From: Blasia pusilla
Taxonomy: Eukaryota
NCBI GenBank assembly: GCA_050084515.1
Contig: CM114271.1
Span: 13,454,001-13,518,000 of the forward strand
Direction of reading: 5' to 3'
Length of the DNA stretch: 64,000 nucleotides
Positions within the stretch are counted from its first letter, which is position 1; each line of letters opens with the position of its first letter. The translations under genes and the position numbers were made by a program. Positions 4,892 through 63,800 of the stretch are shown here, in pieces. Under the pieces are notes generated by a model. The model was not told the origin of the DNA. It was given only the letters and a program-made list of their open reading frames with translations, and made no database searches.

Positions 4892-5078
<187 letters not shown>

Positions 5079-6689: not shown

Positions 6690-7095
6690 GCCCTGATGTA
6701 AAGATGGCGACTACGAGAACATTAGTTGCAATTGTAATAGGTAAGAAGTGGAGATTACATCACATGGACGTCAAGAATGCCTTCTTGAGTGGAGATGTTT
6801 ATAAGGAGGTTTCTATGACTCAACCACCAAGATATGAGCATTCACAATTTCGATTCCATGTATGCAGGTTATAAAAAGCTCTATACGAGCTCAAACAAGC
6901 TCCAAGATCTTGATATAGCAAGATTATATACGTCTTATAAGAGTTGGTATTTAGGGTATGTGATTATAACTCCTTATTATATGTCTTGAGAGGACAAGAT
7001 CATACGGTTATCATTGTGTTGTATGTTGATGACCTCTTGATTATTCGGAGTATTGAGGATATGGTACAAGAAGTCAAGCTAAAGTTATATGCAGA
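6690..7095 (+). mobile_element. Ty1/Copia reverse transcriptase fragment (pseudogene)
   Basis: WRLHHMDVKNAFLSGD...TQPP...VCRL*KALYELKQAPRS...VLYVDDLLI, with stops. Confidence 0.9.
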
Positions 7096-9277
7096 ATTTG
7101 GCTGGATTGGATTTTTCCAGGTGTTATATCGATGATATCTTGGTCTTCAACACCACATTTGGGGAGCATGAGCAACACCTTGTGGAGATGTTTTGACGAT
7201 TGCAATTACATGGGCTGAAGTTACATCCAGACAAGTTCTTTTTGTACCAGATTGAGTACTTTGATCATACGATATACCCAAGTGGTCTTGGTGTTCAATC
7301 GAAAAAGGTAGATGCTATATCATATATCCTACGTCCTACACATGAGATTCGCAAATGTCTATCGGCGATACGTCAAGGGATTTAGTATAATTACAAAGCC
7401 GTTAACCTTGTTGACAAAGATGGATCATAAGTGGCAGTGGGAAATTGAGCAAGAGAAAGCATTTCCGACGCTCAAGGATAGGTTGACATCTGCGCCTATC
7501 TTGAGGAAATTTGACAAGGGGCGTCCTTTCCAACTGCACAGATATTGGAGTATGTTGGGTCTTAGAGCGGTGCTCACCCAACATGATGATGAGGATAGAG
7601 AGTTTTTAGTAGCTTATGCTAGCTACTCAAAAAATGATGTAGAGGAAAGGTATAGCTCATATGAAGCAGAATGTTTGGCTGCAGTATGGGTCATCGCACA
7701 TTCTAGGTGTTATTTTTTGCTAATCCCTTCACCCTCGTTGGTGATCATCAGCCATTGAAATGGTTGATGGAGTCATAAAAGCTTGCAGGGAAGCTTGCCA
7801 TATGGGCTCTGTTATTGCAAAAGTATGACTTCCAAGTGATACATCAATCTGGGGTAATCAACCAAGATGCAGATGGTTTGAGTCAAAATCCATGTCTTAG
7901 TCAACAAGATGCAAATGGAGCTCGTTAGCATGATGAGAGTGATCACTCTCATCATGCTATCAATCTCCTTGATAGTTCCTAGATGGCACGCTTGTACCTA
8001 TTTGGTTTTGCTGGCTATGGATAGCCATACAGCCTCCACTACTACATTAAGGTTGGATGAAGAGTCCCTAGATCTAGAGTCCGTTGAGAAGGTGACAGGT
8101 GCTTGAGATATCCATAAGGATGAGATAGTCTTGGAGTACTTGTGGATTGGTAACATAGCAAGCACAGTGGGTGCTAGAGAGCGGGATAGGATCATACAAT
8201 GAGCACGATGATTCAGAGGGGAGGAGACACATGTTTTGAGAGTTTGGGATAATGGTAGAGTGGGAGTGGAGCTTCATCCTTTGCAAAGAGCATGATTAGT
8301 GCAACATGCCCATAAGGAGTTAGGACATTTTGGAGTAAGGCAGACATACATGTTGCTCCAATAACAGTATTGGTGGTGAGGCATGCAAATGGGCGTCTTG
8401 TAATTTATCGCCACGTGCATGGTATGTGATCGGGTCTAAGCATCATTCTATTCTTCGACCATACAATTGCATCCACTACCAAACATGGATTTTGGCTATC
8501 GATCAAGTTTGGATTTTGTAGGACCTTAACCATTGAGGGAGCACCACAAATGATATGTGTTGGTGATGGTCAACCACTTCTCAAACTCATTCTCGAAGTG
8601 GATAGAGTTGGTTGCATTGCTCGACAAGGCAAGTAAGGGGGTGGCATAATCCTTCCTTGATCGAGTGCTAAGTTAATATGGTGGACTAGCACAAGTGTTG
8701 ACATACTAAGGCCCCAAGTTTCGAGGAGATTTTCAAGCCTTGTATGAACAGGCATTGATCAAACACTACACAACATCTGGAGATCATCCTAAATGAGATG
8801 ATCTAGCCGAGTGTGTTGTCCAAAAAGGGAAGAGAGGATTTTAGGGTGGAGACATTCCAGAGAGTCATGCATATGGCATTCGAGAATTTGGAAATTGCAC
8901 AACATCGGGACATGTTGAGATATGCTACTATTAAAGGAGGAGGCTATCGACCAATGATCTGGAGGTTCCATCAGGGAGACTATATCTACCTATAGCAAAT
9001 AGAACCGACGATCTTTGATGTGACACAAGGGCGCACCATTTTGAGAATGCATGACGTTTTGCCATTCGGAGTTCTTATGTCAGAAGGACTTGATGGTATG
9101 GTTTGGAAGGACCATGTGCATAATTATGCACCTTGCCACCTTCCCAAAATTGATGGTACACTCGAATCGAGCTTGGTAGTGATATCTACATGCTTGCGGT
9201 GTATGTTATGTACATGTGCTAGGGATGCATCCACAATGCTAATCTATGATGGTTGTTCGAGAGGATGGCATTTGGAA
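7096..9277 (+). mobile_element. Decayed DNMT-Gypsy family pol fragment (RT C-half, RNase H, integrase, first half of PHD)
   Basis: CYIDDILVF; PFQLH..WSMLGL..VLTQHDD; YSSYEAECLAAVW; HKELGHFG; CMLC...DGCSRGWH. Colinear with 19830-22225 of the full-length element. Confidence 0.9.
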
Positions 9278-18085: not shown

Positions 18086-18815
18086 AGTTTTGTCATGTAA
18101 AACCTAGGTGTTGGTTTCAAGCCCTATCCTTGTACTAGCTGCATTTGTTGAAACCAATCTCTTCCCACCACTTTGTACAACATTGAAACATTATGTGAGA
18201 AAGCCTTTGGAATTTGAACTCCAATTGGCATCTCATCATCCTCCTCTACTTACTTCTTTCCCTTTCCCTTGCCCCTAGCACCTTTCCAATGCATTTTGAT
18301 CTTAACTCATCAAGAAAGAAGAAACAAAAGTTAGAACCTCCACAATAAAAAAGAGCTCGACAGCCTAGATAAAATAATACATGCAACCAATCATACCACT
18401 CTCAGAAGAAATTTCATTGCATAAAAGATGATGCAATCAATCACACTTGTAAGCACTCCTCAAAGTGATTGTAATTGGATGCATGAGAAGTCATGCATTG
18501 GATCATAGGTTGGTAGCACTCCGCAAAATGATCAACCATATGAGATGTCATGCAACCGATCACTATCCTTGTCGTGTGCCTACTCTCCTTGAACGTCAAT
18601 CTTAGTGTTGCGGAAGCGTACGTTCAGTAGGACACTCTCTCATCGCCAATCTGCACCCAAATGCACTCATCTTAGTCTGGCTTTAGGTCAAGCGGCCTTC
18701 CAACCCATCGGGTCCTCAACCCAGCATCTAATCAAGCTCAACCTTCCCTCATTCCTAGGTGCCCAACACGGCAAGTCCTTCAAGACTTGGAACAGACTTT
18801 CTGGTTAGTCCAAGA

Positions 18816-19576
18816 TGTCGTGCGCATACACATCGCTACACAACATACATCGCTGTCACTGAACACACACACAAACACGCACGATCCCATGCTAACTCAT
18901 GGCATCCAAACAACGAGACAAGAAGTACCAAATATCTCCAATAAAGTAAGATCCAATCTCTCTCTACACAATCTCACACCATAGCTCTCAAAGGTGCGCA
19001 CTCTCTCTCATGTCAAACCAAACCCACAAATGAGAGGCTTGGGTTACACTCACAAGGCAAGGGACCATAGCTCCGCCGCCTCATGCCAAGAGGTTCAACA
19101 AAGAGAGAATGAACTCTCAAGCTCTCTCTCCTTGGGATATATACCCTTCCCCTCTCCCAAGCTCTCTCCATGGTAACCTATTCTCCCAAGTCACCTCTTT
19201 GGCTCTTGACCTGATGTAGGAGGTCAAGGGCCAATTACAAGTAAAGTCAATCATATACTCAAAATGGTACTTACCTAAAATAGTAAGTTCCTCAATATGG
19301 CTCCAAATGAGCCAAAACAAAGGGGAAACCTACTCTCTCAGGTTTCCCGGGGCCTCAGCAGGTCATCCTCGACCTCCTAGGCCTGTCCTCCACTACTCTT
19401 GAAGACGCTCTACTAGATCTCACTGATCTATCCTAAAGGACGTGACAGCTATCGTGCGCATACACATCGCTACACAACATACATCGCTATCATCTAACAC
19501 ACACATAAACACGCACGATCCCATGCTAACTCATGGCATCCAAACAACGAGAAAAGAAGTACCAAATATCTCCAAT
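18816..19576 (-). repeat. 3' terminal repeat block B1-A2-B2
   Basis: 127-bp B at 19450-19576 and 18816-18942 flanking a 506-bp A; the element ends ...GCGCACGACA. Confidence 0.92.
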
Positions 19577-19763
19577 CGCCCCCCTAGCTGGTGGTTAGGT
19601 CCTTCTAACTCCAGATAGCCATCTATCCCTACCTACCATGACATACATCTCTCGAACACTAAGAGCAAGAAGGCCGGGTGCTCATGTGGCCTCATCGTTA
19701 GTCACCTTCTTGTCATCCATCTCAGAGAAAAAGTCAGGATCGAAAACCTACCTAGTATCTCCT

Positions 19764-19905
19764 CTATGTACATCTGGGACACATCCATCGTCCCTGAGGA
19801 ACCCTAGTGAGAGGTGGCGTCAGACATACCATATGCCAACCTCTCGAAAAACCATCACAGACTAGCATCGTGGCCGCACCACGGGCAGAACCACACAACA
19901 TACAA
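19764..19905 (-). pseudogene. PHD finger at the integrase C-terminus
   Basis: CMLCGSARGAATMLVCDGFSRGWHMVCLTPPLTRVPQGRWMCPRCT*, a C4HC3 pattern with one C>F; intact in the copy at 53480-53620. Confidence 0.93.
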
Positions 19906-21010
19906 CGCAAGCCTGCAGGAACTACTGCTAAGCTCGGATCTATTGTACTATCAACGTTAGGAAGGTGACATGGCGCACAAATACGCACATGGTCCTTCCA
20001 TACCATACCATCGCGTCCCTCCAGCAAGAGAACACCGGATGGCAAAACGTCACGCACTCTCAAGATAGTGCGCCCTGCAGTCACATCCAACGTCGTCGGT
20101 GCCGTCTGCTGCAAGTAGACATAATCTCCTTGATGAAACCTCCGGATAGTTGGTCGTAACCACCACCCCGAATAGTCGCATACCTCAACGTATCTCGATG
20201 CTGCGCAATCGCCAAGTTCTCGAACGCCATGGGCATCACTCTCTGAAACAACTCAGCCCTCTGAGAACATGCTCGCACCCATACATCTGGGTCATCAAGG
20301 TCCAGCACCTCACCAGCATCTCGATGAATGGCCGCAGGTAAATCTGGCTCTCGGCCATAAAGTAGCAAGTACGGTGAATAAGACGCTAAGGATGCCTGCC
20401 TGCTGAATCTATATCCCATCGCCAACCATGGAAACTGGAGGTCCCAATCTCCTAGGTGCCCTCTCTACAAGCCATACTTGCGTAAACCCCTCTTTACCGT
20501 TTGCACAACTCTCTCCGCTAATCCATCCGCCTCGGGATGATCTCACGAAGTCGTGCGGTGGTCGATCAGTGCCTGATCACACAAGGCCTGGAACTCACCA
20601 CGAAACTCGGTACCTTGGTCTATCAACACCTCAGCCGGTGCGCCATAATGACTCAGCACTCTGTCAAGGAAGGCATAAGCTACTCCCTCACTCGCTTTGT
20701 CAGGCAATGCAACCAACTCGATCCACTTCGAGAAGTGCTCGACCATCACCAACACATAACGACTGTGACGCTCTGTCAAAGGAAAAGGTCCTGCGAAATC
20801 CAAACTCCATCTATACCCTAAGCCCATGATCGGTAATGGATGCAACTGTGGAGTCGGAGCATTGAACGATGCTCGGACCCGATCACACACCATGCACCTG
20901 GCAACAAATTGTTGAACGTCAGTCTGCATGCCTTGCCACCAATACTGAATCTAGAGCAAGCTATACGTCCGCTTCACCCCAAAGTGACCCAACTCCTCAT
21001 GGGCATGCTG
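19906..21010 (-). pseudogene. DDE integrase with HHCC zinc finger
   Basis: HEELGHFG...CMVC; WSLDFAGP; LIDQGTEF; ERVVQTVK. Contains stops and frameshifts. Confidence 0.95.
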
Positions 21011-21399
21011 GACTAGTCCTGCTCTCAGCGAAGGATATGGCACTACGCATACTCTGCCATCCTCACAAACCCTCAAAATATGTGTTCCCTCCCAACGGAA
21101 TCGTCTGGCCCGCTGTAGGATCCGATCTCGCTCTCTAGCACCCACAGTGCTCGCAACGCTGCGTGTACGAAGGTACTCCAAGACTATTCCATCATCATGA
21201 ATATCTCGGCCACCTGTCGTCTCCTCACTGGCCTCGGGATCCAAGGACTCTTGACTAGATCTCCCCATCGAAGTCTCCACACTCTGGCTCTCAATAGCCA
21301 ACATGCCTAAATAGGCTGACGTGTGCCATCCTGGCACTGACTCCTCATCACTCTCTCCATGCCATCGAGCTCCAGTCGCATCTCGCTGACTCGGGCATG

Positions 21400-22740
21400 G
21401 GTTACGACTCAACCCATCTGCATCCTGGTTGAGCGTCCCAAGTCTATGTACCACCTGAAAATCATACTCCTGCAACAATAGAGCCCATCTCGCAAGCTTT
21501 CCTGTAAGCTTGTCGGACTCCATCAACCACTTCAGTGGTTGATGATCAGTGATGATGGTAAAGGGGTTGCCTGAATAAGTAACACCTGAAATGCGCGATA
21601 GCCCACACCGCAGCCAAGCACTCACCCTCATACGAGCTGTACTTCGCCTTTGCAGCGTTGTTCGAGCGGCTAGCGTAAGCCACCACGAACTTTCTACCCT
21701 CATCATCATGCTGGGTGATCACCGCTCCAAGCCCCAACATGCTCCAATCTGTGTGCAACTAGAAAGGACGCCCCCTGATCGGTCTCCTCAAGATGGGCGT
21801 AGACGTCAACCTGTCCTTGAGCAACTGAAATGCTCGCTCCTGCTCATCCCCCCAGTGCCACTTGTGATCCACCTTAGTCAGCAAGGTCAGTGGCTTCGCA
21901 ATCGAACTAAATTCCTTGACGTATCGCCGATAGAAGATCGCCAATCCCATGAATGCGCGAACCCGGCTCACATCTGTAGGGCGTGGAATGCGTGAGATAG
22001 CCTCTACCTTCATTTGTTGAACACCAAGGCCCCCTGGGTATATCGTATGACCCAAGTACTCAATCTGGTCGTAGAAGAACTTGCACTTGCCTGGATTTAG
22101 CTTCAGCCCATGTAATTGCAATCGTTGAAACACCTCCTCTAGATGTCGCTCATGCTCCTCAACGGTGGCGCTAAAGACTACGATATCATCAATATAATAC
22201 CTAGCAAAATCCAGACCAGCCAAGATCCTATCCATCACCCTCTGAAACTCAGCCGGGGCGTTCTTTAACCCAAATGGTAAGAACCGCCACTGGTACAAAC
22301 AATCCTTCCTGTGAGGATCAATGCCCCAAAATGCCACCATACACTTTTGTCCTCCAACTGATAGGCGGTTGATGGTATCTCGGCTCATAAATCAATGAAT
22401 CAAGACCTTTGCATGACCAATCGCATCAAAGATCTCCTCAGGGGTGGGCATGGCATACCTATCGGACTTCGTCTGCCGATTGATAGGCCAGTAATCCCCA
22501 CACATCCGCCTATCCGTCCAGTTGCCATGCACATCCTTCTTGGCGGGCATGATAGTGGCAGATGCATACTCCCCAAGTCCTGGCTCCTACTCTGAATTAG
22601 AGCCCTCTCCATATCACTGTACCTGTAGGGTCGTCGGAAGATTGGCGTATCACTCGACAACTCAATGCGGATCCCCGGTCCCTTCAGCATACCCAAATCC
22701 TCCATGCTAAACGCAAAGCAGCTCCTATAACTCTTGAGGA
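21400..22740 (-). pseudogene. Gypsy reverse transcriptase and RNase H
   Basis: PIFRRPYRYS; YQWRFLPFGLKNAPAEFQRVMD; YYIDDIVVFS; LHTDWSMLGLGAV; YSSYEGECLAAVWA; TDHQPLKWL. Confidence 0.96.
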
Positions 22741-23139
22741 ACTCATGTATTCGGCGCCCCTCTCCTCCTGTCAACTAAGGGCCCATATCTGGCTCCCAAG
22801 TCTCCATTGTGACTACGGTAGGACTCTCCGGCCCAGGTATCGGTGGTTGCTATGGTGCAAACCCGTCTCGAACAACAACACTCGGCCACTCTCCTACAAC
22901 CAACTGCAAACTCTGATCTCCTCCACGTGCAGTGCCCGAAACCATACTCGATGTTGTGGCTATCATCTCCTTGCGTACCTGCAAAACATCCCAAGAAGTC
23001 CAAGGGTGTCTCTCTCGATCTCCTCGGGTCTCGCCCCCAGCCACTGCCTCCAACGTCTCGGTAGGCATGGGGCTCACCAACGCAACCGTTGTGATCTGTC
23101 GCGATCTCATACGACGCTGCTCAGCCACTCCCAAGCTAA

Positions 23140-24070
23140 GGATCCATGTCAAGCAGTTCAGGTCCATGGCTTGACCCAAGACATGGCGTCGTGATGCCTC
23201 TGACACTGACGGTACTGCCGTCACTCCTGTGGGAAATCCCATCGATGGCTCTCTCTCGTCGGCGTTGGGCTTCACTCACTGCTAAACCTGGTCATCCCAA
23301 ACCAAGCCAGGACTGGCCTCCTTGTATGCATAGGAAGCGGGAAAACTCACAAACGTGGGCAAGGCTGCCCGCGGCCTGCCTACCCTGTTGACCACAGTCA
23401 ACGGTGGTCGATCATCGTGCCTCACTTCCTGTGATCGACGACGTGGATCCAGAATGGAATCCACTAACAAATGGGAAGGGCGCTCCACTCTCGCATACGC
23501 CCTCCGTAACACCGCATGGGGCACAAAGTTGGTCCATCATAGACACGGACGATGGGCTCTAGAACCTACACTCGCCGCATCCAAGAACACTGCTGGGCCG
23601 ATCGAGGCACGCACCTGATGAGCACTCATCACCACCCGTGACCGGGAGTCTCCTAAGATCGGCACATTCTCCAAAATGTAGGTTGGAGAATCCTACAACT
23701 GCCGTAAGACCCTCAACATCTCCCAAAACAACCTCGACCGAGTGTCAGCCAACCCGCTGCCTCGTCCAGCACTCGATTGGCCCTCACATGGCCAACCGGC
23801 AATGACCAAATCAATGGTCCCTACCCGCTCTAAGTCCTACGCCCCCAACAACGAAATATCCCTCGGTAGGGAACTCTGATATCCTTGTACTGCGGACGTA
23901 GACAATAAGTCGAGAAAACGTAGGCATAAATGCGCCACATGTAGTAGTGAGACGCGCCTCGCAACATCATCACTCTCCACATACAGGTACTGCTGTACTC
24001 GCACTCCTGCCTGCAAAACAGCAGCTAACCCGGTGCTAATCCCTCCAAAGAGATCTAACACTCGAATACC
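23140..24070 (-). pseudogene. C5 cytosine DNA methyltransferase domain (DNMT3-like) inside Pol
   Basis: Motif I IRVLDLFGGISTG; II YLYVE; IV IDLVIAGWPCEGQS (catalytic PC kept); VI YILENVP; VIII AHRPCLWWTN; IX PNADERE..MGF; X RRHVLGQAMDLN. Confidence 0.93.
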
Positions 24071-24479
24071 CTCCTCTAGGGTACACCACACAATAGGTGT
24101 GGTATCTAAGGGTGTCATCGTAGCACTCCCTGCTACCTCGGGCTCCTCAGACCCGTCACGCTGCGGTGCAAACGCCTCGCTCCACGCGGTCTGCACGTGC
24201 TCATCTGCCAATCGTCGAAGCTCCTCAGTCGAGCCCCATATCGGCACCTCTCCTCCACGAAATGATGCACCTACCATAACACTCCTCTCCATAGAAATGT
24301 CAGGAACGGGAGTATCCTCTATATGGACATGTCCCTCAATCAAATCACTAGGCCAAGTGATGGCACTGCTAAATGCTGCTAAGGTCGCCATCTCTCCTGG
24401 CCATTGCTCGATCACTGCACATGTGAATCAAACGGGTAATGAGCTAAGGCGCCCATCACCTGACTACCATCCTGGTCTG

Positions 24480-24850
24480 TAGGACGTTGACTCCTCCCAG
24501 TAATCCAGGGAAAACCCCATCGGGTATAACACTGCTCCACCAACCAAGAGGTCGTAGGACTCTGCATCACTCACTATCGCTTTGGCGGGCACCACAGACT
24601 CATCAGTAGGATGTCCTGAGCAAATCCTTACCACGACCTCCTATCGGGTGATATACTATGTGGTACTCGCTCCACCCAAGGATGTCTGCATCCGGAATGG
24701 ACAACGCTCCACATCGGCTCTCGTCAAGCCCAATCCTCTGAATGACGCTTTCCCCAACATCAGGGGTTACGCTCCTGAATCCAACAATACGCGCTACGGA
24801 CTAAAAGCTCTACCTCTAGGACTCACCAACTGGAAGACCTCTCCTCGGTT
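24480..24850 (-). pseudogene. Retropepsin aspartic protease
   Basis: RVLLDSGA*PLMLGK...SYDLLVGGAVL. Confidence 0.85.
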
Positions 24851-25459
24851 ATCCAGCAACACAACACCAAGAGAAGCCATGGCACGCTCTATCGCAGGTC
24901 TAGCAGGCATCTCCGCCATTCTAGCAGCCGCAGCCAACCATGAATCTGACGTGGACAGTCTGAGCATCCGCTCCAAGGGCACGTCCATCACCTCCTCTGC
25001 AATCACCTCTGAAAGTGATGCAGGAACTCTAACTCCGCGCTCACATAGCGACGCGGCCAGCCAAAAAGCCTCGCGGGCGTATCCCCCAACGTCATAACAT
25101 CGGAAGCAGAAAATAAAGGAGTGGGGTACACAACGGTGGCCGCCCCCAACAATGTGCTCGACACATGACCCTCCTGAGCATCAACAATAGGAGTCGTCGC
25201 GCTCGCTTCTCCCATCGCCCTCCATGCCTGCACACCAACAACATCACCAACTCTCATGGAACTTTGATGAGGACCCATCGATGGGGTCCTCATCGCTTCG
25301 GACAATGTGAAAGACTGAGGAAGCCTAGTCTATTTTCTAGCTTCCCCTCGCTGTGGATCCAACTCTGCGGTTGCTCCACGCGTCACAACTACGGCGGCCT
25401 CCATCTGGGCAACTCTGCACATCCAATCAGGATCCTGCAGATCTCTAGCTGCTCCATAT

Positions 25460-26925
25460 GATGTCGATGCCACGGATACGGCATCGTGTAACCTCAATGC
25501 CATAGCGGCAATCTGCTCCTGTAGCTGTTGTATCTGAGCAGCCATCCCAGCCTCATGTCCGGCGTCTCCCTCGGCGCGTCTAGGTGGTGGTACTCTACCT
25601 CCTTCACGGGCAGCTCCACCACCCTGTCGGGCAACTCCAGCTCCTCGTCCCCCAACGGGACCATCTGGTGCACGATCTCTAGGCCCATCCGGACCGGCTA
25701 CTCGCTCTGGTGCCCTCTCTAGCCCTCAGTCCAAATGTAACTGAGAATATAAACTGAAACATTTGGTGCATGTATGACCATACCTCTGACAATAGTCACA
25801 CTGATAACCTCCTGGTGCAGCACCATCTCCTCCTCCATGCTGAGGCATACATCCATGACCCTGACGAGTGTAATGGCGCTCATGATGGGCTCCACCACAT
25901 GACCAACAAGTAATAGTAGGCGGTTGCTTTTGAGCCGCATATGAAGGCGCAGGTCTCTGTGCCACCGGCTCCCGGTATCCTCCCTGAGCTCGTGGTGCCA
26001 CAGTTGACCTATCTCGGAGTCCACGTTGTCGCACGGTGATGCGACCAATCGCGCTCGCCGCCGCCGAACTCATGGTGGCTACGCTCTCCTCCGCCATGTT
26101 GCGCTCAATGTTCTTGGCGGTCCTAAAAACATCTCTCAACGTAGGGGATGTGTTCACAAGAAGCACCCCCTTCCGCACCCGTGGCCATAGGGTCTGGTCC
26201 AGCATCGCGTACCATGATTGGATAGCCTGAGCCTCTGTCACCCCTTGAGTGACGTTGATCAACTGGCGCAAGCGAGTGTAAGCCTCACGTAAACTCTCAC
26301 CCGGGCGCCTCTAGAAGTTGTGGATGCTCCGCAACTTTTCCGTCCGTACCCCTTGGTAGTTCGCCCTCAACTCAGCAAAAAACTCAACCACGGGGTTGAA
26401 CCTGGGATGAACCCGACTAGACGGTGCAACTGCTCCAGTGCGAGTGACCCCTCCTAAAACATCACTAGTGGAAGAGGAAGTAGCCTCTCCTGACTCCTCC
26501 TCCTCATCTGGGAACGGCTCCGTCCATGACACATAGTGTGGGTTGTAGTAGAGTCGCCATGCCTCAATCTCATGGGCATATCTGTGGGAAAACTCATGGT
26601 AATCGTCCATGGGTGCCCCCTCTAAATGCTGGAACATACCGTTCCATGCTGTAAACGGGTTGAACTCTCTAGAGTTTCTGGCCCATTGGGAGTCGCACCA
26701 ACTCCTAAACTCTGCTATGAAATCGTGCAACTCAATCGTACCTACTGCACCTGAAAACCTACGCTGTCCTCTACCCCGGTCATCCATCTCGTACGTCCAA
26801 CCGGTAGGACCACTCACAATGTGTGGCGATGTGCTCACAAATTCCTCTACACCCTCCCCCTTGTCTGACGATGACACAGAAGGAGGTCGAGGTGGTCCCT
26901 GAAGTGAAGACCCTCGGAACCTCAC
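25460..26925 (-). pseudogene. Gag with two zinc knuckles
   Basis: F*RRPGESLREAYTRLRQL (major-homology-like); CWSCGGAHHERHY and CDYCQRYGHTCTKC. Confidence 0.85.
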
Positions 26926-28588
26926 GCCACTCCCCGTAAAACCTCTAGAGTTACTCTCGGGTTCACCACCTCGCCTCTCAAATTCCCGAACGGACGCCGT
27001 GATGACCCTCGTGCCCTTCTCACACGATCACTCTTGCCTCGCGTGTAATCCCTCAATCACTCATCCCAAATATGCGGCACTCGATCTACACTCTCCCTCC
27101 CCGAGACATGTAACGTGTGACAATAAGCGGCGTGGTGCGGCTAATCGACCAGGCTATCATCTCATCGACAATCTACCCTCAACTCCGAACATCTCACATA
27201 GGTCTATGTCCCCTAAATCACATACATAAATGATGCTCTCAGCATCCACACACCCAATATCCCCAAATAAACTACCCAAATCCCAGAATCCCTCACACGT
27301 GCAGGGTAAAGGACCAGAATGGGTAACCTGAACACATGTCGATGTCGCTCCTCAGCAACTGCGAATCTCGACCCCAACTCGGTCGTGGACCTCTAATCAG
27401 CAAGTCATACTCCTCCCGTACTGATGTTTCTCAAAACTCCTTGATAGACGGCGCAGTTCCAACGGAACGGTGCGGCGTTGCAGGCGGCACGGAACGGCTA
27501 CAAATGGCACGGCCCTCGATGATGGGATGCGGCACTCGACGTCATACCCTCCTCAATCAACAATAAACCCACACTCTGCTCCACAATGCCGGAGCGGCTC
27601 CGTGATCAAGACGGTGCGGTGCGGCCATGAGTGGCACAACGCGGCAATCGGCGGCGCGTTGCCGTTACGTGCGTCACGGCACGGTACCGATCGTCGTTGA
27701 GTGGCTACCAATCACAACATAGCAGCAAGAAATCAAAACTCAAACACTATAACATGAGGTCATATGCCATCACAAGTTGATGACGGTGGTGGCCAAAACA
27801 AAGTACGTGATGGCGACGCAAGTCCGAGAATCAACGAACGTTGTGGAAGACCCTCCACTCCGTAACGGTGGCAATCGCAACCAAGGGTGGACAACGGACG
27901 GTGGACCATTGACGGTGACGGTTGACGGTGACGGTTGACCATTGATGGTGATAGACAAACGGTGATAGTGACGGTTGAAAGTGACTATGATGGCGACGGC
28001 GACGGCCGCCGCTGGTGTGGCGGCTGGTTTAGGGTTTGCACAATTTAACCCTAAAAATCGCCTAGCAATACCAGTTTTGCAAGATTGACCATAACTTTTT
28101 GCTCGCAACTCCAAATTGCACATTGTTTGTTGCACAATGTGTACAGCTTCATGATCTACGCCAGCATCAAAAATATTTGGAATCGAACATTCCAGTAAAA
28201 ACTGACGGGGACTGTCATAAAGCCCAATGTCTCTTTCTTCTACCCAACATTCGGCAGCGCTTCCGCGATGATTCCTCCCAACAAAAATGTAAAACCTATA
28301 AAAATAAAAATCAGAAAGCGACATGGTGCTCCCAAAAGCACCGGCATGGGGCAACCCGCCCCCATACTCAATCCCTATGAGACGCGCCAGTCTTCCACAC
28401 GAAAAATTGGCAAATGCAAAGAACAATCCAAGCAACCCTTGCTCCAATGAGCACTCCCATGAACCGTTGAACGGGGAACACGGTCCCCAACCTGCAAAAA
28501 CAACAAGTGACCAGCGAGCTCCCCCATGAAGCTCTCTCACTCTCTCATTCTCGCATTCTCTCTTTCTCTCATTCTCTCATTCTCTCTT

Positions 28589-29101
28589 TGTAAAGTAAGA
28601 TCCAATCTCTCTCTACACAATCTCACACCAGAGCTCTCAAAGGTGCGCACTCTCTCTCATGTCAAACCAAACCCACTCTCTTAATGAGAGGCTTGGGTTA
28701 CACTCACAAGGCAAGGGACCATAGCTCCGCCGCTTCATGCCAAGAGGTTCAACAAAGAGAGAATGAACTCTCAAGCTCTCTCTCCTTGGGATATATACCC
28801 TTCCCCTCTCCCAAGCTCTCTCCATGGTAACATATTCTCCCAAGTCACCTCTTTGGCTCTTGACCTGATGTAGGAGGTCAAGGGCCACTTACTTGTAAAG
28901 TCGATCATATACTCAAAATGGTACTTACCTAAAATAGTAAGTTCCTCAATATGGCTCCAAATGAGCCAAAACAAAGGGGAAACCTGCTCTCTCAAGTTTC
29001 CCGGGGCCTCAGCAGGTCATCCTCGACCTCCTAGGCCTGTCCTCCACTACTCTTGGAGACCCTCTACTAGATCTCACCGATCTATCCTAAAGGACGTGAT
29101 A
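28589..29101 (-). repeat. 5' terminal repeat A1 (LTR-like)
   Basis: Direct repeat of 18942-19447; reads TATCACGTCC (A2 has TGTCACGTCC)...CTTACTTTACA. Confidence 0.93.
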
Positions 29102-32100
29102 GAGCATTGACAAGATGGTGGTCATGCCACTCCTCCAAGTGAGCGTCCATACTTGCATTTGGGGGATTCGAAAACCCAATCCAAAACAATTGCCACCACT
29201 CTATCCAAGATCCAGTTGATGTCGTTCATTTGGGTTAGAGACCGAGTCTAAGAAACACCCATCTCAACTATGGCTCCAAAAAATGTATCCCCGTCTAGAG
29301 GGTTCTTGGAACCACTCTTGAAGGTACCTCATCCAAACCCTCCTTCCCCTCATCCATGGAAAAAAATAGAAAGAAGAAGAAGAACAGTCCGTCGTGAAAC
29401 AACAAGCTTGTTGTTTCACAATGGACGATTTAAGGGCTTGGCCGCGTCTTACGTGAGTCTCTCTACCAAAGAGAAGGCTGAATCCAAGGATGAAAAATGA
29501 GAAATAAGGAAAATAAAGGGGCGGGGAGGTGGGGGAGTCCGAATTTTTTTTGCAACTTTGGTTTGGTACTTTCTTGCGATTCTGTTGAGGTTGTGTTGTG
29601 AATGTCTCCGTTAAGGTTTGTGCGAGTGCCTTTCGACTATCGTGCAAGCATTGGAAGATACAATATGGGTCCATTTTATGGCTATTGACAATCATATGGG
29701 GGCACAATTTTGAAGAGTTATAAGTTCAAATCAGTGCTCGTCAAAGTACTTACATGACACTCACAAATATAGAAATTGCAACTTTCTTGGAGCCGCAAAT
29801 GAGAGCCGCAATAGAGCCATAAATAGGACTTGAAACCATGATGAATTTTTTCTAAGTATTGAGTTCAAACTATCACACAAAAATCAAAAATTCTGATCTT
29901 TTCCCTACGTAAGCCATTTGGGACTTTATTTTCACAATTTTATTTCTTGTGGCTAGTCGTTTCCCATATCCTTTGCCTTCATATGTGACAAGATTTTGTG
30001 CTAGAAGAGGATTCCTGATTTTGAGTGGCGGCCACCAATTTTATCCCTAGAGTTTTAGCAACTCCTTGAGTGAGAGTAGGCTAGACATATCTGAGCATTA
30101 TGTGATTACCAAGAATAAGCTCAAGCTCATGCTTTCTACCAATCTTCTATGAAGGTGCACGAGCATGATGTTGGGGAGTCGTCTAAGCATAAATTCTTGT
30201 GTGTCTGCTCAGTATTAGATGTAAAGATGGTTGTTCATGCCGAAGGTGTTAGACCACATCACAATGCATGGTCAATATGATCCAAAACATCTCGTTCGCA
30301 CTTAGGTAATGATTCCCAGCTACAACTCTGATTAAGTGTTTTTCTTTCTTTGCACCTATTGTGGTGCAAGGCTAAGTATATGCCTACATGTGGAATTTGT
30401 AGCATGTATGCACCACAAGGTTGCATGTAGACAAAGTCCATATCCGTGGACTTATGTCCATCCTATGGAAGGACTTGTCCATATGACCCCACCTTTCCAT
30501 TCTTTCTCATTCCTCTTACTTGCCTTCGTGTTCCATACTCCCCCATTTCTTCCTCCCTCCACCTCCACTCCCTACTTCCTCATTGCTCCTCTCGTCCTTG
30601 CCTTGCCTTCCATCATGGACTAATTTTGTGGGTCCCATCTCTTGGAACCCATGTATGTGAACATGTCCAGTCTTGTCCGTCCATGTCCGTCCTAAGGAAG
30701 GACTTGTCTATTTTTGTGCAACCATGATGCACCATCACACGAAGGTGTAATGGAAAGACATCCTCCAAAACATAACTCAATGAAACCCTTTTGAATGCTT
30801 GTCCACGAACACGGATGTGTAAAATGGTTCTACTCTTGGACCTCTTCATGCCCCCATAGAACCATTGCCCCCTCCCTCCCAATGAGATTGAGATCGACCA
30901 ATGATCCCTAAGCATACGAGCCTCTCATATTAGCAATGTTGTAGGAACTGTCGAGTTTAATATTTTGATGATTAAGCGTATAGTTTGTTTCCCTAGAAGA
31001 CCAAATATCTCTTGTGAATGGATAATTTCTTCAAGAAAATTATGAATAATTTATTGTATCATCTCAACCCTCATATCTCTCAAGAATTGAGGTACTCTAA
31101 CTAAGAAAAGTAGTATCACTTCCTCCCTTGGTCAACATCTTCTCAAGTGGAAATGGAAATTATTCTAATTTAACTAAGAGAATCATATAATGATTAGATA
31201 TTAACAAGATGCCTCTCCCTATTTTGAGAACTTAATCAGTCCTCTCAAGTTCCTCTCGGTCTAATAGATTTCATACATTCCCATTACAGTACCCTCTCGC
31301 CCTCCACATAATTCACAACCAACAATTTCAATGCATCTTGCACACCCAATGAGATTAAGACTAACACCTCTACAGCTCGAGATATGAAATCGCATTCTCA
31401 ACTACTTCCATCGAAGATATATGGGGACCTCAAAAGATTACAAAGCTCAAGAAGCTACTTTGTCTTAAGCTTGGACCATTCTAACAACATATCTTTCTTG
31501 TTCTAGTCTCTTTCTAAATAGGAAAAATCAAAGGCCTTACATCATATATGAAATGTTCTTTCTTGCTATGTCTGTTAAGATAACTCCCTAACTACTTAAT
31601 CAAAGGTCTATCTTGGCCTAAGATCAATCCCACCAAATCCACTTGTTCTTTCCTAACGTTGCACCTCTTGGAAGCACCTTCCCCAAGTGTCGTTTCCTTC
31701 ATTAATCTTCATTGGTTCTTCCTTGGCTTTACAGTCCTCGTTAGAGAAGCCTTCGGTCTTCGCCCTGTATTAGTAAGTACTTTGTGCCTCTATCACATAG
31801 TCTTCGTGGCTTACTCTTTCCTACAAAGTACTTCATGACAAAGTATCATTGTAAAGTACTTTGCTTATTCTTTTTTTCAAAAAGCCTTTGCCAATTTTTG
31901 CCTTCCTAGTCTTATCCTACAATCTTTCTTAAACTTTCTTCTTGCAAAGACCTCCGCTCTTCATACATACAAAAGTCTTCCCCATTAGTATTTTTCCTCA
32001 AATCCTATTCACAAATTCTGACAAAAAATCCTCCCTACTTCTTGGAAAAAATTCTATTTTTACAAAGACTACTTCAACACTCTTCACAACTTCTGCCATT

Positions 32101-51842: not shown

Positions 51843-54558
51843 TTGTGATCATGAGCCACTTAAGTGGTTGATGGAGTCCGAAACGCTTATAGGGAAGCTT
51901 GCAAGGTGGGATCTTTTGTTGCAGGAGTATGACTTCCAAGTGGTGCATAGACCTAAGACGCTCAACCAAGATGCAGATGGTTTGAGCCGTAACCCATGCC
52001 CGAGTCAGCGAGATGCGACTAGAGCTCGTTGGCATGATGAGAGTGATGAGGAGTTGGTACGAGGATGGCATGCGTCAGCCTATTTGGGCTTGTTGGCTAT
52101 GGAGAGCCAGATTGTGGAGACTTCGATGGCGAGGTCTGATGGAGAGTCCTTAGATCCACAGGCCGATGAGGAGACGAGACATTCACGACAATGGAGTGGT
52201 CTTGGAGTACCTGCGTAGTGGCAACGTCGCGAGCACAATGGGTTCTAGAGAGCGGGATCGGATCCTACAACGAGCCAGACGGTTCCGGTGGGAGGGCACA
52301 CATGTGTTGCGAGTGTGGGAGGATGGTAGAGTGCCTGTAGTGCCTCATCCTTCGCAGAGAGCACGTTTGGTGCGTCATGCCCACGAGGAGTTGGGTCATT
52401 TTGGAGTGAAGCGGACGTATAGCTTGCTCCATATTCAATATTGGTGGCGAGGCATGTAGATTGACGTTCAGCAGTTTGTTGCGAGATGCATGGTGTGTGA
52501 TCGAGTCCGAGCATCGTTCAATGCTCCAACTCCACAGTTGCATCCACTTTTGATCATGGGTTTAGGTTATAGATGGAGTTTGGATTTTGCAAGACCTTTG
52601 CCTTTGACGGAGCGCCATAGTCGTTATGTGTTGGTGATGGACGAGCACTTCTCAAAGTGGATAGAGTTGGTTGCATTGCCTGACAAAGCGAGTGAGGGAG
52701 TTGCGTATGCCTTCCTAGATCGAGTGTTGAGTCATTACGGAGCACCGGGTGAGGTGTTGACATACAAGGGTACAGAGTTCCACGGGGAGTTTCAGGCCTT
52801 GTGTGATCAAGCACTGATCGACCACCGCACTACTTTGCGAGATCATCATGAGGCGGATAGACTAGCAGAGCGGGTTGTGCAGACAGTGAAGAGAGGACTA
52901 CCCAAGTATGGCTTGCAGAGAGGTCACCTAGGAGATTGGGAGCTTCAGTTGTCGTGGTTGGCGATGGGATACAGATCCAGCAAGCAAGCATCCTTAACGT
53001 CTTTCTCACCGTACTTGTTGCTTTATGGCCGAGAGCCACATTTACCAGCGGCCATTCATCGAGATACGGATGAGGTGTTGAATCTTGATGACCTTGATGT
53101 ATGGATGCAAGCATGTTTTGAAAGGGCTAAGTTGTTTCGAAGAGTGATGTCCATGGCGTTTGAGAACTTGATGATTGCGCAACATCGGGATACGTTGAGG
53201 TATGCCACTATTTGGGGAGGTGGTTATCGACCTACTATCCAGAGGTTTCATCAGGGAGACTATTGTCTACTTGTAGGAGATGGCATCCTCGACGTTGGAT
53301 GTGACTGTAGGGCGCACCATCTTGAGAGTGCGTAAGGTTTTGCCATCCGGGGTTCTCTTATTGGAGGGACGTGATGGTATGGTTTGGAAGGACCATGTGC
53401 ATAATGTGCACCATGTCATCTTCCGAACATTGATGGTACAATTGATCCGTACTTAGCAATAGTTCCTATAGGCTTGCGGTGTATGTTGTGTGGTTCCGCC
53501 CGTGGTGCAGCCACTATGCTAGTCTGTGATGGGTGTTTGAGAGGATGGCATATGGCATGTTTGACACCACCTCTCACTAGGGTTCCTCAGGGCCGATGGA
53601 TGTGTCCTAGATGTACATAGAGTAGGCAGTTCTACATTCTAACTTGTGTCTGTGATGTGGATGACAAGAAGGCGACTAAAGATGGGGCCACATGAGCACC
53701 CGACCTTCTTGCTCTTAGCGTCCGAGAGATGTATGTCATGGTAGGTAGGGATAGATGGTTGTCTGGAGTTAGAGGGACCTAACCACAAACTAGGGGGCGA
53801 TTGGAGATATTTTGGTACTTCTTGTTTCGTTGTTTGACTGCCATGAGTTAGCATGGGATCGTGCGTGTTTGTGTGTGTGTGTTCGGTGACAACGATGTAT
53901 GTTGTGTAGCGGTGTGTATGCGCACGACAGTTATCACGTCTTTTAGGATAGTCGATGAGATCTACTAGATGCCTTTGTATGTAGTGAAGGACAGGCTCAG
54001 TAGGTCGAGGATGACCTGCTGAGGCCCTGAGAAACCTGAGAGATCAGGTTTTCCCATCTTTTCGGCTCATTTGGAGCCATATTGAGGAACTTACTATTTT
54101 AGGTAAGTACCATTTTGAGTATATGATCAATTTGCTGTTTTTGGTAAGTATCCCTTGACCTCCTACACATGAGGTCAAGAGCCAATGAGGTGACTTGGGA
54201 GCATAGGTTACCATGGAGAGAGCTTGGGAGAGGGGAGGGGTATACCTCAAGGAGAGAGAGCTTGAGAGCTCGTTCTCTCTTTGTTGAACCTCTTGGCATG
54301 AGGGGGCGGAGCTATGGTCTTGCTTGCCTTGTGTGTGTAACCCAAGCCTTTCATTAGGAGAGTGGGTTTGGTTTGACATTGAGAGACACATGTGAGAACT
54401 ATAATGTTGTGAGAGAGATTTGATCTTATTTTATTGGAGATATTTTGGTACTTCTTGTCTCGTTGTTTGGATGCCATGAGTTAGCATGAGATCGTGCGTG
54501 TTTGTGTATGTTCGGTGACAGCGATGTATGTTGTGTAGCGATGTGTATGCGTACGACA
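51843..54558 (+). mobile_element. 5'-truncated DNMT-Gypsy family copy (RNase H end, integrase, intact PHD, PPT, B-A-B)
   Basis: DHEPLKWLMES; HEELGHFG; WSLDF; PHD 53480-53620; PPT 53791-53800; B1 53800-53929, A 53932-54432, B2 54433-54558 ending in CA. Confidence 0.93.
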
Positions 54559-59992: not shown

Positions 59993-60440
59993 GTCCGCCA
60001 TTCAAGGTTACCAGAGTTCCCTACCGAGGGACTTTTCATTGTTGGGGGCGCAGGACTTGGAGCGGGTAGGGACCATAGACTTGGTCATTGTTGCTTGGCC
60101 GTATCTAGGCCAATCGAGTGTTGGACGAGGTAGCGGGTTATTTTGGGAGATGATGCGGATCTTGCGACATTTACAGGAGCATCAGTCTCCTTCTCCAGCA
60201 TACAATTTGGAGAATGTGCCATTTTGGGCGATTCAAGGTCCTACGTGGTGAGGAGTGCACATCAGGTGCGTGCATGGATCGGCCCGGCAGTGTTGTTAGA
60301 TGGAGCGAGTGTGGGTTCACGAGCACATCGCCCGCGTCTTTGGCGGACCAACTTGGTACCACATGAGGTATTGCGGAGGGCTTATGCAAGAGTGGAGCGT
60401 CCCTCCGATTTGTTGGTAGATTCTATATTGGCTTCGGGCC
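59993..60440 (+). mobile_element. Isolated DNMT fragment (motifs IV-VIII) of the DNMT-Gypsy family
   Basis: GTIDLVIVAWPYLGQSS; YNLENVP; GSRAHRPRLWRTN; close nucleotide match to 23440-23900. Confidence 0.9.
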
Positions 60441-60859: not shown

Positions 60860-63800
60860 AAAATTGTGGGTATCACAATTGCTCAGTTGGAGCAACGCCT
60901 TCAGGTTGTGACGGCCCAGCAGACATCTACATGAGTGTAGGGGGCGCGTCAACTTCCGAATCTGCTCAAGCCCAAGATATGGTGGGAGATCTAGGAGGTA
61001 TGGGAGTTTTGTGCAACACCGCACATGTGGATGCAAATGAAGTGGTTACGGTAGGGGCGGTGAGAGCTTCTGAGCCACGAGGATCCGATGTGGAGTTGGA
61101 TTCCCAGAGGGGAGAAGCTGGCACACACACTAGACTTCCCAAGTCTTTTAGATTGTCAGAGGCTCTTCAGACTCCATTGATGGTCCCTAGACGGCCTTTG
61201 AGGAGTGTTGTTGTCGCAGATGTCGATGCAGTGAGAGGAGCGGGTGAGGTGAGTATGTCTACCAGACCTATGCAGCCTTCGACATGGCCTAGTACTAGCA
61301 TGTTATGAAGATGGCAACGGCTTTGTGTAGCGTCCAATTATTTACGGCTAGAAATTTTTTGACATGTGGAGGTCGACCAGCTAGCCGCGACGCTCTGTGA
61401 GAGCGATGAGTTTGGTTCTTTTAGTGTTGAGACTCGCACATGAGATGTTGCAGACGTACCCTTAGAGCAAGTGTTTGGGACGAGAGCCACAGAGAGTTGG
61501 CATGCAGCAAGGGCTAGAGTGGCGGAGTTTCCAGCTAGACCAGCGATAGAGCGTGCAGCCATCTCACCAGGAGTTGTTGTCTTGGACAACCGAGATGGAA
61601 TTTTCCAGTTTTTTGGTCCATCCAGAGTCGTGTATCGACCGTAGAGAGTGCTACTTGATTCAGGAGCACAACCCCTTATGTTGGGGAAGGCAGCACGTGT
61701 AGCGATGGGATTGCAGAAGTGTGAGATCACTCCATGTCCATTCTAGATTCAGACTTCACTAGGAGGCACATGCCCGACATAGTTCATGACTCACGATGAG
61801 ATTACAGTGAGGATTCGGCCCAATCATCCTTCGAATAGTACGATGGTGCAGAAGAGAGCGGTTCTGACATCGGCCGAGTCTTATGATGTTTTGGTAGGGG
61901 CTACCATATTGTATCCTCTAGGATTCACACTTGAGTTTTGGGAGGAGACATCCTCCTATCGATCAGGTTGGCAGTTAGGTGAGGGACGAGCCAGTCAACT
62001 GCCCGTGCAGTTTGCAGGGAGACTTGAGGGTTCATTCCGAGGGTCGACCACAGCAGTTGCTACTTATTTTGGCACATTATGTTGGCCTGGATATTTCCTG
62101 GAGGGGAACGCCAATGCAGAGGATATTCTTGTAGATGATAGTCTTGAGGAGTGGCATGTGATGACGAGCGTGGCTACATCTGATGGCGATACTCCTTCAA
62201 ATTTTTGGGGGACGAGCATCGATTTGCAAAGGAGAGCAAAAATTTCGTGAGGAAGGCGTGGAGCCGAGAATATGCTTTAGAGCGAGACGTGACAGAGTTA
62301 CCACGTGCACTAGGAGTGGAGACGTTGACACCCTTGGACGTCACACCGATTGTGTGGTAGTATCCCGAGAAGGATGTACCTATACTAGATCTCTTTGGAG
62401 GGATTAGTACAGCGTTGGCTGCAGTGTTGCAAGCCGGAGTACGAATACAGCAGTACTTGTATGTTGAGAGTGATGAGACTGCATGTAGAGTCTCATTACA
62501 TCATGTGTCGAGACTAGTCCGGAAGTATCCTCAGTTCCTGCCAATGTTTGTAGGTAAGGGATATCAACATGTATTGTCGACCGACATTTTGTTGTTGGGG
62601 GCACGAGATCTGGATAGGGTTGGTCCGATACACTTGGTGGTGGCAGGGTGGCCATATCAGGGTCATTCTTCGGCGGGTCAGGGACTTGGTTTGCAGGACC
62701 CGAGATCGGCCATGTTTTGGGAGATGTTGCGTGTTCTTTGTCACTTGCAGACTATCCAACGATGTTCTGCAGCTTACATTTTGGAGAACGTCCCATTGTT
62801 AGGTAACACTCGAGCCCGAGTGATGGTGAGTGTACATCAGGTGCGGTTGTGGATAGGACCGGCGATGATGTTGGATGCGGCGAGTGTTGGATCACACACA
62901 CAACGTCCACAGTTGTGGTGGACAAACCTTTTATCATCCGAGTTATTGAGGCGGACTTATGATGGAGTCCAGAGACCATCACTTCTTACAATGGATGCGA
63001 TCTTGGATCTAGGGCGGCGATCTCAGGTTGTTACTTGTGATGATATACCACCGTTGGCAATGGCCAATCGGGTGGGCCAGCATAGGGCAACATTTCCTAC
63101 GTTGGTGAGTTTCCCGTCATCTCATGCTTTTTGTTAGGGAGGACCAGGCATGATATGGGATGAGCAGGCAGGTACACTGGTGGAGCCCAACGCCGACGAG
63201 CGAGAGCGAGCTATGGGGTTCTCTAAAGGTATGATGGTGGTGCCTATGATGGTAAAGGCATCCTGCAGACAGGTATTGGGTTAGGCTATAGACCTGAACT
63301 ATCTTACTTGGGTGTTCAGTCTCAGTTTGGCCGAGCAGAGATGGATGCGAAAGGCGTATGTGACATTAAGTCCACTTTGCAACGCAGCATCTACCGGGAC
63401 GGGTGAGATATTGGCTGGGGGCGCAATGGTGATGGAGAGGCATCCATGGACTTCATGGGATATGTCACGAGAGCACAAAGAGATGGGAGCTCATTTTGCT
63501 GATGCAAGACATAGTTGAGTGCCTAGAGAGTTGGTGTTTGAGTTGGGAGTGCATGTTGTTGCTCCAGAGGTTGCTAGTCAGCAACCACCACCCTCCTCTT
63601 CTCCAGAGGTCACGAGAGAGACTTCGGAGCCATTGATTGGTCCTAGGTTGACAAGGGCGGAGAGGAGATGAGTGTTGTAGTTCTTGTGGAGATTCAAGGA
63701 TTGTTTTGCATATAGTATGCACGACTTGGGTATGCTAAAGGGTCCAAGGATTCGGATCGAGTTGGATAGTGATACTCTTATCTTCCGACCACCCTACATA

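Follow-up and report, generated by a model that had tools for sequence, protein, structure and literature searches.

The minus strand of the 64-kb stretch of DNA analysed here (the window) carries a decayed retrotransposon, element 1, whose Pol polyprotein includes a DNMT3-like cytosine-5 methyltransferase (C5-MTase) domain, named DNMT below. The order found in element 1 was A1-gag-CCHC-PR-DNMT-RT-RH-INT-PHD-B1-A2-B2, in which A and B are repeats, CCHC is the zinc-knuckle region, PR the protease, RT the reverse transcriptase, RH the RNase H and INT the integrase. Its Pol follows the Ty3/gypsy order, PR-RT-RH-INT, the integrase being of the DDE type, and the DNMT is inserted after the protease. 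The coordinates of all features are collected in Table 1.

The methyltransferase domain and the element that carries it

The DNMT of element 1 (copy 1) was found in a single reading frame of 526 codons that runs from 24427 to 22850 on the minus strand, and neither a frame shift nor an intron was found within it. Motif I, IRVLDLFGGISTG, is located at 24067-24029 (-) and is followed in canonical order by motifs IV (GWPC), VI (ENV), VIII, IX and X, the last of which ends near position 23168. Five in-frame stops interrupt the frame, at codons 197, 245, 297, 382 and 384. When it was read through, with X placed at the stops, the Pfam profile PF00145 (DNA_methylase) matched it with an E-value of 1.1e-10 and 41.9 bits, the cut-off being 22. 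Among sequences of solved structure the closest to copy 1 was DNMT3A (7.8e-9), and then came DNMT3B, DNMT3C, DRM2 and M.HhaI. The motifs are unpermuted, running from I to X along one frame, unlike those of DRM.

The same class was indicated by an intact relative, the protein P0003. Its best match among solved-structure sequences was also DNMT3A (6e-12), with DRM and the bacterial enzymes ranking lower. The AlphaFold model of P0003, which was built with 32 aligned relatives, reached a mean predicted local distance difference test score (pLDDT) of 90.4 and a predicted template-modelling (TM) score of 0.89. The Foldseek matches listed for this model were all DNMT3A, DNMT3B or DNMT3C, the best with an E-value of 2e-18 and with identities of 20-23%, and the TM scores against catalytic-domain chains, normalised to the target, were 0.79-0.85. 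Across 63 aligned relatives the motifs DLFGGISTG, AGWPCQGHTR, ILENVP, RAHRPRLWWTN, ERERAMGF and RRQVLGQAMD were strongly conserved. By its sequence and by the fold predicted for P0003, the domain is a DNMT3-type C5-MTase. A preliminary description of this DNA had reported C5-MTase motifs in canonical order at 23140-24070, an intronless location between an LDSGA motif and the RT, and a DNMT3-like pattern, and it had proposed a search with the DNA_methylase profile. Each of these points was borne out: six motifs share one frame, the protease motif LLDSGA is in that same frame with the RT match beyond the DNMT, the profile search was positive, and both sequence and model comparisons led to DNMT3.

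The rest of the coding part was assigned with more variable support. No Pfam protease match was obtained in the window copy itself; its protease stretch aligned with residues 772-923 of the polyprotein P0385, which cover the Pfam Asp_protease_2 match of that protein (E=3e-11). The gag and zinc-knuckle region gave no match to Pfam. After the integrase, no chromodomain was detected by Pfam in element 1 or in the mapped relatives, and a PHD finger was found there instead. The best solved relatives of this finger were CHD4, PHF12, the first PHD of KDM5A/B, DPF3, PHF21A, ATXR5, BAZ2A/B, AIRE and UHRF1. Most such PHD fingers bind the unmodified tail of histone H3 (H3K4me0), which we take as a lead only. 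Between A1 and gag there is also an open frame of 268 codons, at 27770-28576 (-), whose start lies in a GA-rich stretch and for which Pfam gave no family; it may be spurious or may encode an unrecognised leader protein.

The ends of element 1 are arranged as A-coding-B-A-B and not as two plain long terminal repeats (LTRs). The B1-A2-B2 arrangement was also observed in a truncated copy in the window, at 53800-54556 (+). Metagenome contigs were scanned as well and yielded 80 loci; among those of at least 11 kb (n=25) the complete A...B-A-B layout was seen in L056 and L073 and its B-A-B part in L015, L036 and L079. A tandem array was considered as the source of B2 and rejected, since A2 is followed by the sequence that precedes A2 and not by the sequence that follows A1. 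The 7-mer CATCTTG stands at both outer ends, and it is a candidate target-site duplication that would fit the insertion of the whole A...B unit; this 7-mer occurs 11 times on the minus strand of the 64 kb, only one element provides the observation, and the exact extent of the duplication is ambiguous. The A-coding-B-A-B layout is usual for tyrosine-recombinase (DIRS-like) elements, yet in element 1 it occurs together with a DDE integrase and a possible target-site duplication.

Table 1. Location of element 1, its parts and related copies in the 64-kb window.
Feature	Position	Strand	Basis and remarks
Element 1, whole inserted unit	18818..29110	-	About 10.3 kb, decayed; self-comparison, repeat alignment, Pfam, flanking 7-mer
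Candidate target-site duplication, 7-mer CATCTTG	29111..29117 and 18811..18817	-	Just outside A1 and B2
Repeat A1, 5' long repeat	28591..29102	-	512 bp; 493/512 columns identical to A2 (96%)
gag and decayed zinc-knuckle region	25726..27027	-	Frame differs from pol; tblastn, 37-56% identity to the gag/CCHC position of metagenome loci
Retropepsin	24434..24907	-	LLDSGA (near 24780) and YDLLVGG; same frame as DNMT; has stops
DNMT3-like C5-MTase core, motifs I-X	23140..24070	-	Whole in-frame stretch 22850-24427; catalytic PC retained
Reverse transcriptase	21759..22774	-	RVT_1 E=1.4e-24 at 21759-22391
RNase H	21464..21854	-	RT_RNaseH 6.3e-10; RT_RNaseH_2 4.2e-4
Integrase, H2C2 zinc domain and rve core	20549..21034	-	rve 1e-13; Integrase_H2C2 1.5e-6
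PHD finger, C-terminal end of integrase	19770..19904	-	PF00628 E=4.1e-9; one zinc ligand mutated in element 1
Repeat B1	19452..19576	-	125 bp; abuts A2 upstream; preceded by a G-rich purine run; 95.2% identical to B2
Repeat A2, 3' copy of A	18942..19448	-	Self-comparison, repeat alignment
Repeat B2	18818..18942	-	Abuts A2 downstream
DNMT of copy 2	62196..63491	+	55% amino-acid identity to copy 1 over 434 columns; open stretch of 258 codons at 62361-63137
DNMT fragment 3, motifs IV-VIII	59994..60430	+	One frameshift; motif IV is PY
5'-truncated copy, RH-INT-PHD-B1-A2-B2	51846..54556	+	85.6% identical to element 1
5'-truncated, more diverged copy, RT-RH-INT-PHD region	7098..9275	+	Self-comparison

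Copies, relatives and surroundings of the element

When the protein of DNMT copy 1 was searched against the window by tblastn, two further places were found, the DNMT of copy 2 and fragment 3. Copy 2 matched PF00145 with an E-value of 3.7e-6 and 27 bits, and it is preceded by a protease-like stretch at 61513-61691 and followed by the start of an RT that reaches the end of the window. At motif IV it has PY in place of PC. Neither of the two pieces of fragment 3 gave a Pfam match (0/2).

The DNMT part was then used in homology searches. At an E-value of 1e-5 or less, 56 proteins of near its length were obtained, plus 40 among longer proteins. The named near-length matches were from Marchantia polymorpha (12), Calypogeia fissa (3), three Sphagnum species, Riccia sorocarpa (1) and Closterium (1), and the named longer ones from Marchantia (15), Sphagnum fallax (1) and a protein whose identifier we read as Chromochloris zofingiensis (P0090). 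The best identities to the window DNMT were 68% in Calypogeia and 66% in Marchantia, versus 38% in Closterium. In public annotations the bryophyte matches (Marchantia, Calypogeia, Sphagnum, Riccia) stand as unnamed or hypothetical products. A HMMER search with P0003 gave 4,268 cluster representatives at an E-value of 0.001 or less, 965 at 1e-10 and 269 at 1e-30. The Atlas search returned generic DNA_methylase clusters only, the best being a eukaryotic cluster of 57 members that is commonest in Streptophyta. No Klebsormidium protein was among the homologues returned.

A tree of the DNMT was built with 65 rows, namely the 77 of 115 matched proteins with at least 85% profile coverage, minus 14 near-identical ones and plus two partial rows; its sole outgroup row was P0056. 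Both window copies fell inside a clade of 29 rows together with Calypogeia, Sphagnum and Marchantia (Shimodaira-Hasegawa-like approximate likelihood ratio test, SH-aLRT, 99), with Closterium outside. In the RT-RH tree the RT of the window grouped with the Marchantia proteins P0064 and P0075 at 100, and all 28 DNMT-bearing rows were split from five Gypsy rows that lack a DNMT at 97.

Two domain orders were recognised among the relatives. PR-DNMT-RT-RH-INT was found in the window, in Marchantia (P0064, P0075), in Closterium (P0053, P0373) and in a few unnamed polyproteins; open gag-PR-DNMT-RT-RH-INT frames were seen in P0385 (2,327 residues) and P0390 (2,138 residues), and P0098, of the same order, also carries a PHD finger. 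The other order, RT-RH-DNMT-INT-PHD, was that of the Chromochloris protein P0090 and of most unnamed polyproteins (also P0087 and P0091), and these relatives are probably algal. P0090 has in addition, at residues 737-780, a G-patch domain (PF01585, E=5e-5) between DNMT and integrase. When 144 new representatives were considered, 72 were consistent with RT-RH-DNMT-INT-PHD and 6 with PR-DNMT-RT-RH-INT, while 66 held the DNMT alone. The DNMT tree separates the two groups (96), and so does the RT-RH tree, where the RNase H-DNMT-INT group is one side of a branch supported at 99; 20 of the 66 RT-RH-DNMT-INT-PHD rows, chosen by hand, were used in the latter. A single acquisition of the DNMT and a later shift of the domain to another place in Pol would agree with the trees without being proven by them. 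Concerning the metagenome, DNMT was followed by RT, RH, INT and PHD in 9 of the 10 long loci listed, 7 of which had gag, CCHC and PR upstream, and a PHD finger lay downstream in 22 of the 31 loci with an integrase match. Across the family the DNMT occupies two positions in Pol; a DDE integrase always accompanies it, and a PHD finger usually does. No publication on these two positions was found in the literature searched.

The selection acting on the domain was evaluated within the window from the ratio of nonsynonymous to synonymous substitution rates (dN/dS) by the method of Nei and Gojobori (NG86). The ratio was 0.107 between DNMT copy 1 and fragment 3 (139 codons, dS 0.81) and 0.18 between the DNMT cores of copies 1 and 2 (316 codons), where dS was 1.6 and thus near saturation. 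For the other parts of Pol we obtained 0.079 and 0.165 in the integrase core (two copy pairs), 0.337 in the RT (one pair), 0.21 and 0.28 in the RNase H (two pairs) and 0.42 and 0.28 in the PHD open reading frame (two pairs). Considering that its ratio is similar to those of the core enzymes, the DNMT was constrained as tightly as they were while the sublineages diverged. Among the metagenome copies, 77 have a residue at the position of the catalytic cysteine, and in 72 of these it is the cysteine.

Abundance and transcription were estimated from two public DNA runs and two RNA runs with one common species label, using the internal 9 kb of element 1 (19580-28580) as reference. Contig pieces at least 90% like this internal part numbered 27,027 and 21,194 in the two DNA runs. 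The summed depth was 4,363-9,856 in the DNMT bins and 9,563-14,743 in the RT bins, and the DNMT bins amounted to 0.4-1.0 of the flanking ones. The DNMT is therefore present in a large share of the copies of the family; one contig, of depth 7, had a deletion inside the DNMT. RNA reads covering element 1 numbered 3,247 and 2,865 in the two runs. First mates were commoner on the plus strand, about 15-fold in the first run and mostly 20- to more than 100-fold in the second, and since plus-strand first mates mean element-strand RNA in most stranded libraries, the family is probably transcribed in sense. Nearly all RNA reads were 90-99% like element 1, and most of them 90-95%. Reads of both runs also skip 21641-22682, 21389-21484 and 19831-20081; these joints (e.g., 21641 to 22682) were rejected as introns on account of ends that are not splice sites, and they are probably transcribed deletion variants.

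The decay of copy 1 could be followed in the same reads. Forty near-fixed differences were listed out of 1,640, and two DNMT stop positions are among them. At these two positions all DNA contigs carry another letter, as do RNA reads in proportions that range, by run, from 17/30 up to 39/39, so that the two stops are private to copy 1. In 29 of the 40 differences the window has T or A where the family has C or G, with CHH (16), CHG (7) and CG (6) contexts. Such a bias is the signature of cytosines deaminated once the copy had inserted, and the decay is not restricted to CpG.

Taken together, the DNMT is a conserved and selected part of Pol and a trait of the family, not a one-off capture. The preliminary description had anticipated this from a diverged second copy in the window. 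That copy proved real, lying between a protease-like stretch and the start of an RT, and the family trait extends to three window copies, to the thousands of contig pieces and to the same gene order in metagenome loci. A dN/dS near 1, which the description had named as an argument against its own proposal, was not what we found between sublineages.

The window as a whole resembles nested transposon remains, with a background G+C content of 36-46% versus 52-55% within the element. Pieces 73-81% like repeat A were seen at 1202-1761 and 16947-17183 and are probably solo repeats, or pieces of repeats, from related elements. Perfect dinucleotide arrays were noted at 1653-1784, (GA)66, and at 4895-5073, (CT)89.5. 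Host genes, tRNAs and other Rfam families were looked for throughout the 64 kb; Rfam gave no match, and ten further open reading frames gave no Pfam family.

Origin and possible role of the encoded enzyme

Taking into account the domain, the repeats and the trees, we consider it highly probable that the region is the DNMT3-type domain of a dead Ty3/gypsy-type copy with the A-coding-B-A-B layout, which belongs to the Gypsy-DNMT3 lineage and, within it, to a sub-clade with bryophytes as its named members. Several results weigh against this reading or limit its reach. The stop-to-stop pieces of DNMT copy 1 gave no Pfam match when they were searched singly (0/4). As judged from their sequences, none of the three DNMT copies of the window is intact or able to encode an active enzyme, because copy 1 has five stops and the catalytic cysteine is gone from copy 2 and fragment 3. 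Inspection by eye revealed no tRNA-type primer-binding site after A1. The trees hold few named rows, and the five outgroup rows without a DNMT came from a biased search, which covered proteins of 1,904-5,000 residues, drew in animal BAZ2B proteins through the PHD columns of its alignment and gave only three relevant matches. RNA reads at least 99% like element 1 were only 1 and 2 in the two runs, which suggests that relatives of element 1 are transcribed rather than element 1 itself. Stops were absent from only 2 of the 71 metagenome loci in which 300 or more codons were aligned, and the median pairwise dN/dS among metagenome copies was 0.57-0.67 (1,923 of 1,927 scored pairs, those inside the dS bins), which is the expectation for mostly neutral decay after insertion; by these two results much of the sampled bryophyte-clade family is relic DNA. 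In the published case from Klebsormidium nitens, KnitGypsy-Dnmt3 gave no detectable methylation in yeast, a result that its authors call inconclusive (PMC5890265), and membership of our element in one lineage with it rests on design and repeats, the two being compared by description and not by sequence.

With respect to function, in live copies the enzyme would be made within Gag-Pol and would act as a self-contained module, considering that the domains beside it in the polyprotein are not always the same. It would methylate de novo the newly made or newly integrated DNA of the element itself. The PHD finger of the integrase, of the class that reads unmodified H3 tails, would in turn steer integration to chromatin without H3K4 methylation and away from H3K4-methylated promoters. 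Self-methylation by a retrotransposon DNMT was suggested in the abstract of de Mendoza et al. 2018 (PMC5890265), and the guidance of chromovirus integration by chromodomains is cited in PMC6673714. As worded here, with self-methylation and PHD-guided integration together, this mechanism is tentative, and our analysis gives it a real yet minority chance of being right.

Alternatively, the main substrate of the encoded DNMT may be host chromatin, either at the target site or across the genome; the insertion would then be sheltered, or host surveillance blunted, by a methylated state that the enzyme establishes or imitates. In the algal form the DNMT adjoins INT-PHD, an order with which half of the new representatives were consistent and which would bring the enzyme to the site of integration; the PHD finger is similar to histone-tail readers, and effects on the host epigenome were raised in the text of de Mendoza 2018 (PMC5890265). 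In the window form, however, RT and RNase H stand between DNMT and integrase, so a covalent link to the integrase is not required, and we regard action mainly on the host as possible, if doubtful. A catalytically silent scaffold like DNMT3L, recruiting or regulating host methyltransferases or readers, would agree with the inactivity of KnitGypsy-Dnmt3 in yeast (PMC5890265) and with the PY found at motif IV in two of the three window copies. The loss of the cysteine nevertheless looks secondary, because the PY copies show other decay too; motifs I, IV (PC), VI (ENV), VIII, IX and X are kept across the relatives, and the metagenome copies nearly all retain the catalytic residue (72/77), which makes a scaffold highly improbable.

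The origin of the element was weighed in the same manner. If the host were a streptophyte alga, the element would be the case already described, and it is true that Closterium shares the domain order and that no host gene was recognised in the window. The window copies are nonetheless placed in the clade supported at 99 whose named rows are all bryophytes, with Closterium outside it; the RT joins Marchantia at 100, and the identities to Calypogeia and Marchantia (68% and 66%) are far from the 38% of Closterium, so that an algal host is very unlikely. Judged by the kin of the element, the host is very likely a land plant and probably a bryophyte. A piece of a host DNMT3 that landed by chance in one element, or an assembly chimera, has nothing in its favour beyond the oddness of the arrangement, and it is refuted by the recurrence of the same in-frame position in both diverged copies of the window, in proteins of Marchantia and Closterium and in metagenome loci, by intact gag-PR-DNMT-RT-RH-INT frames of 2,138 and 2,327 residues and by a further 269 clusters at an E-value of 1e-30 or less; its probability is negligible.

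Returning to the Gypsy-DNMT3 lineage with bryophyte members as the preferred reading, a bolder form of it may be stated. Bryophyte-grade land plants would hold a high-copy, still transcribed Gypsy-DNMT3-PHD family of algal descent, in which the DNMT moved from behind the RNase H to behind the protease, and some copies would make an active de novo enzyme that adds to or interferes with the host DNMT3/DRM. We consider this form unlikely; if it were true, a transposon would write part of a plant methylome. The window copies are relics and cannot by themselves reveal what the enzyme does for the element.

Comparison with known systems

Cytosine methylation is the main brake on plant transposons, and this logic is turned around when a transposon supplies a de novo methyltransferase of its own. 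In the literature searched, one streptophyte alga was the sole published case of the plant lineage. A 2025 paper and a 2026 preprint place Gypsy-DNMT3 in 'streptophytes', in passages that cite the 2018 work. No description of a retrotransposon DNMT in Marchantia, mosses, liverworts or land plants was found in the full-text literature searched, although supplements (Supplementary Fig. 13 of the 2018 paper, the trees of PMC12344493) may show bryophyte sequences or the order of domains in Klebsormidium. The preliminary description had stated that no land-plant family was established. This stands insofar as none has been described in that literature, and it does not stand for the public databases, where such proteins are already annotated in Marchantia, Calypogeia, Sphagnum and Riccia. 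The presence of the same lineage, with its odd repeat layout, in public bryophyte annotations that include the model liverwort Marchantia provides workable material on the use of the enzyme to the element.

The closest published system is KnitGypsy-Dnmt3 of K. nitens, which has intronless Dnmt3-like domains in a Gypsy Pol open reading frame with a ratio of nonsynonymous to synonymous rates (Ka/Ks) below 0.2, and repeats that the main text calls 'the same as a DIRS retrotransposon', defined there as A-coding region-B-A-B (PMC5890265). Both systems share the intronless DNMT3-like domain in Gypsy Pol, the A-coding-B-A-B layout, catalytic residues that are kept and a low ratio (here 0.11 and 0.18). 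They differ in that the nearest named relatives of the window element are bryophytes and the window copies are dead. The window family is also very abundant, while K. nitens has, according to the paper, fewer such copies than Symbiodinium (PMC5890265). The word PHD is absent from the main text of that paper, whereas the window element has a PHD finger after the integrase. The algal Gypsy-DNMT3-PHD elements (Chromochloris P0090 and many metagenome polyproteins), on which no publication was found in the literature searched, have a related DNMT clade (33-37% identity, E-values of 1e-40 to 1e-52), a related RT and a PHD finger after the integrase, but their DNMT lies between RNase H and integrase and that of the window between protease and RT.

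More distant systems share single traits with the window element. DNMT3A and DNMT3B of vertebrates have the catalytic fold and the motif order of Gypsy-DNMT3, and they pair the enzyme with an ADD domain, a zinc-finger reader of unmodified H3K4. Identity to them is only 20-23%, and the window element lacks PWWP and ADD domains, its reader being a classic PHD finger located elsewhere in the polyprotein. SymbioDIRS-Dnmt3 of Symbiodinium is described with a DNMT3-like domain in Pol, the A-coding-B-A-B layout and two coexisting domain orders, but with a tyrosine recombinase, not a DDE integrase, and an unrelated RT lineage (PMC5890265). Chromoviruses have a chromatin-reader module fused to the C-terminus of the integrase, for which a role in targeting is cited in PMC6673714; their reader is a chromodomain and they have no DNMT, whereas the reader of the window element is a PHD finger. 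The EpiLTRs, as presented in their preprint (bioRxiv 10.64898/2026.05.21.726589), are also LTR elements with a cytosine methyltransferase and a chromatin reader. Their DNMT is, however, sister to DNMT4 and located at the 3' end of pol, and it is accompanied by an adenine methyltransferase and a chromodomain (bioRxiv 10.64898/2026.05.21.726589).

By this comparison the element of the window is not a new kind, given that the DNMT3-in-Pol design and the A-coding-B-A-B layout were already published for KnitGypsy-Dnmt3. What it adds is modest but concrete: the lineage in bryophyte-grade plants, very abundant and with sense transcripts, a PHD finger on the integrase, and two domain orders.

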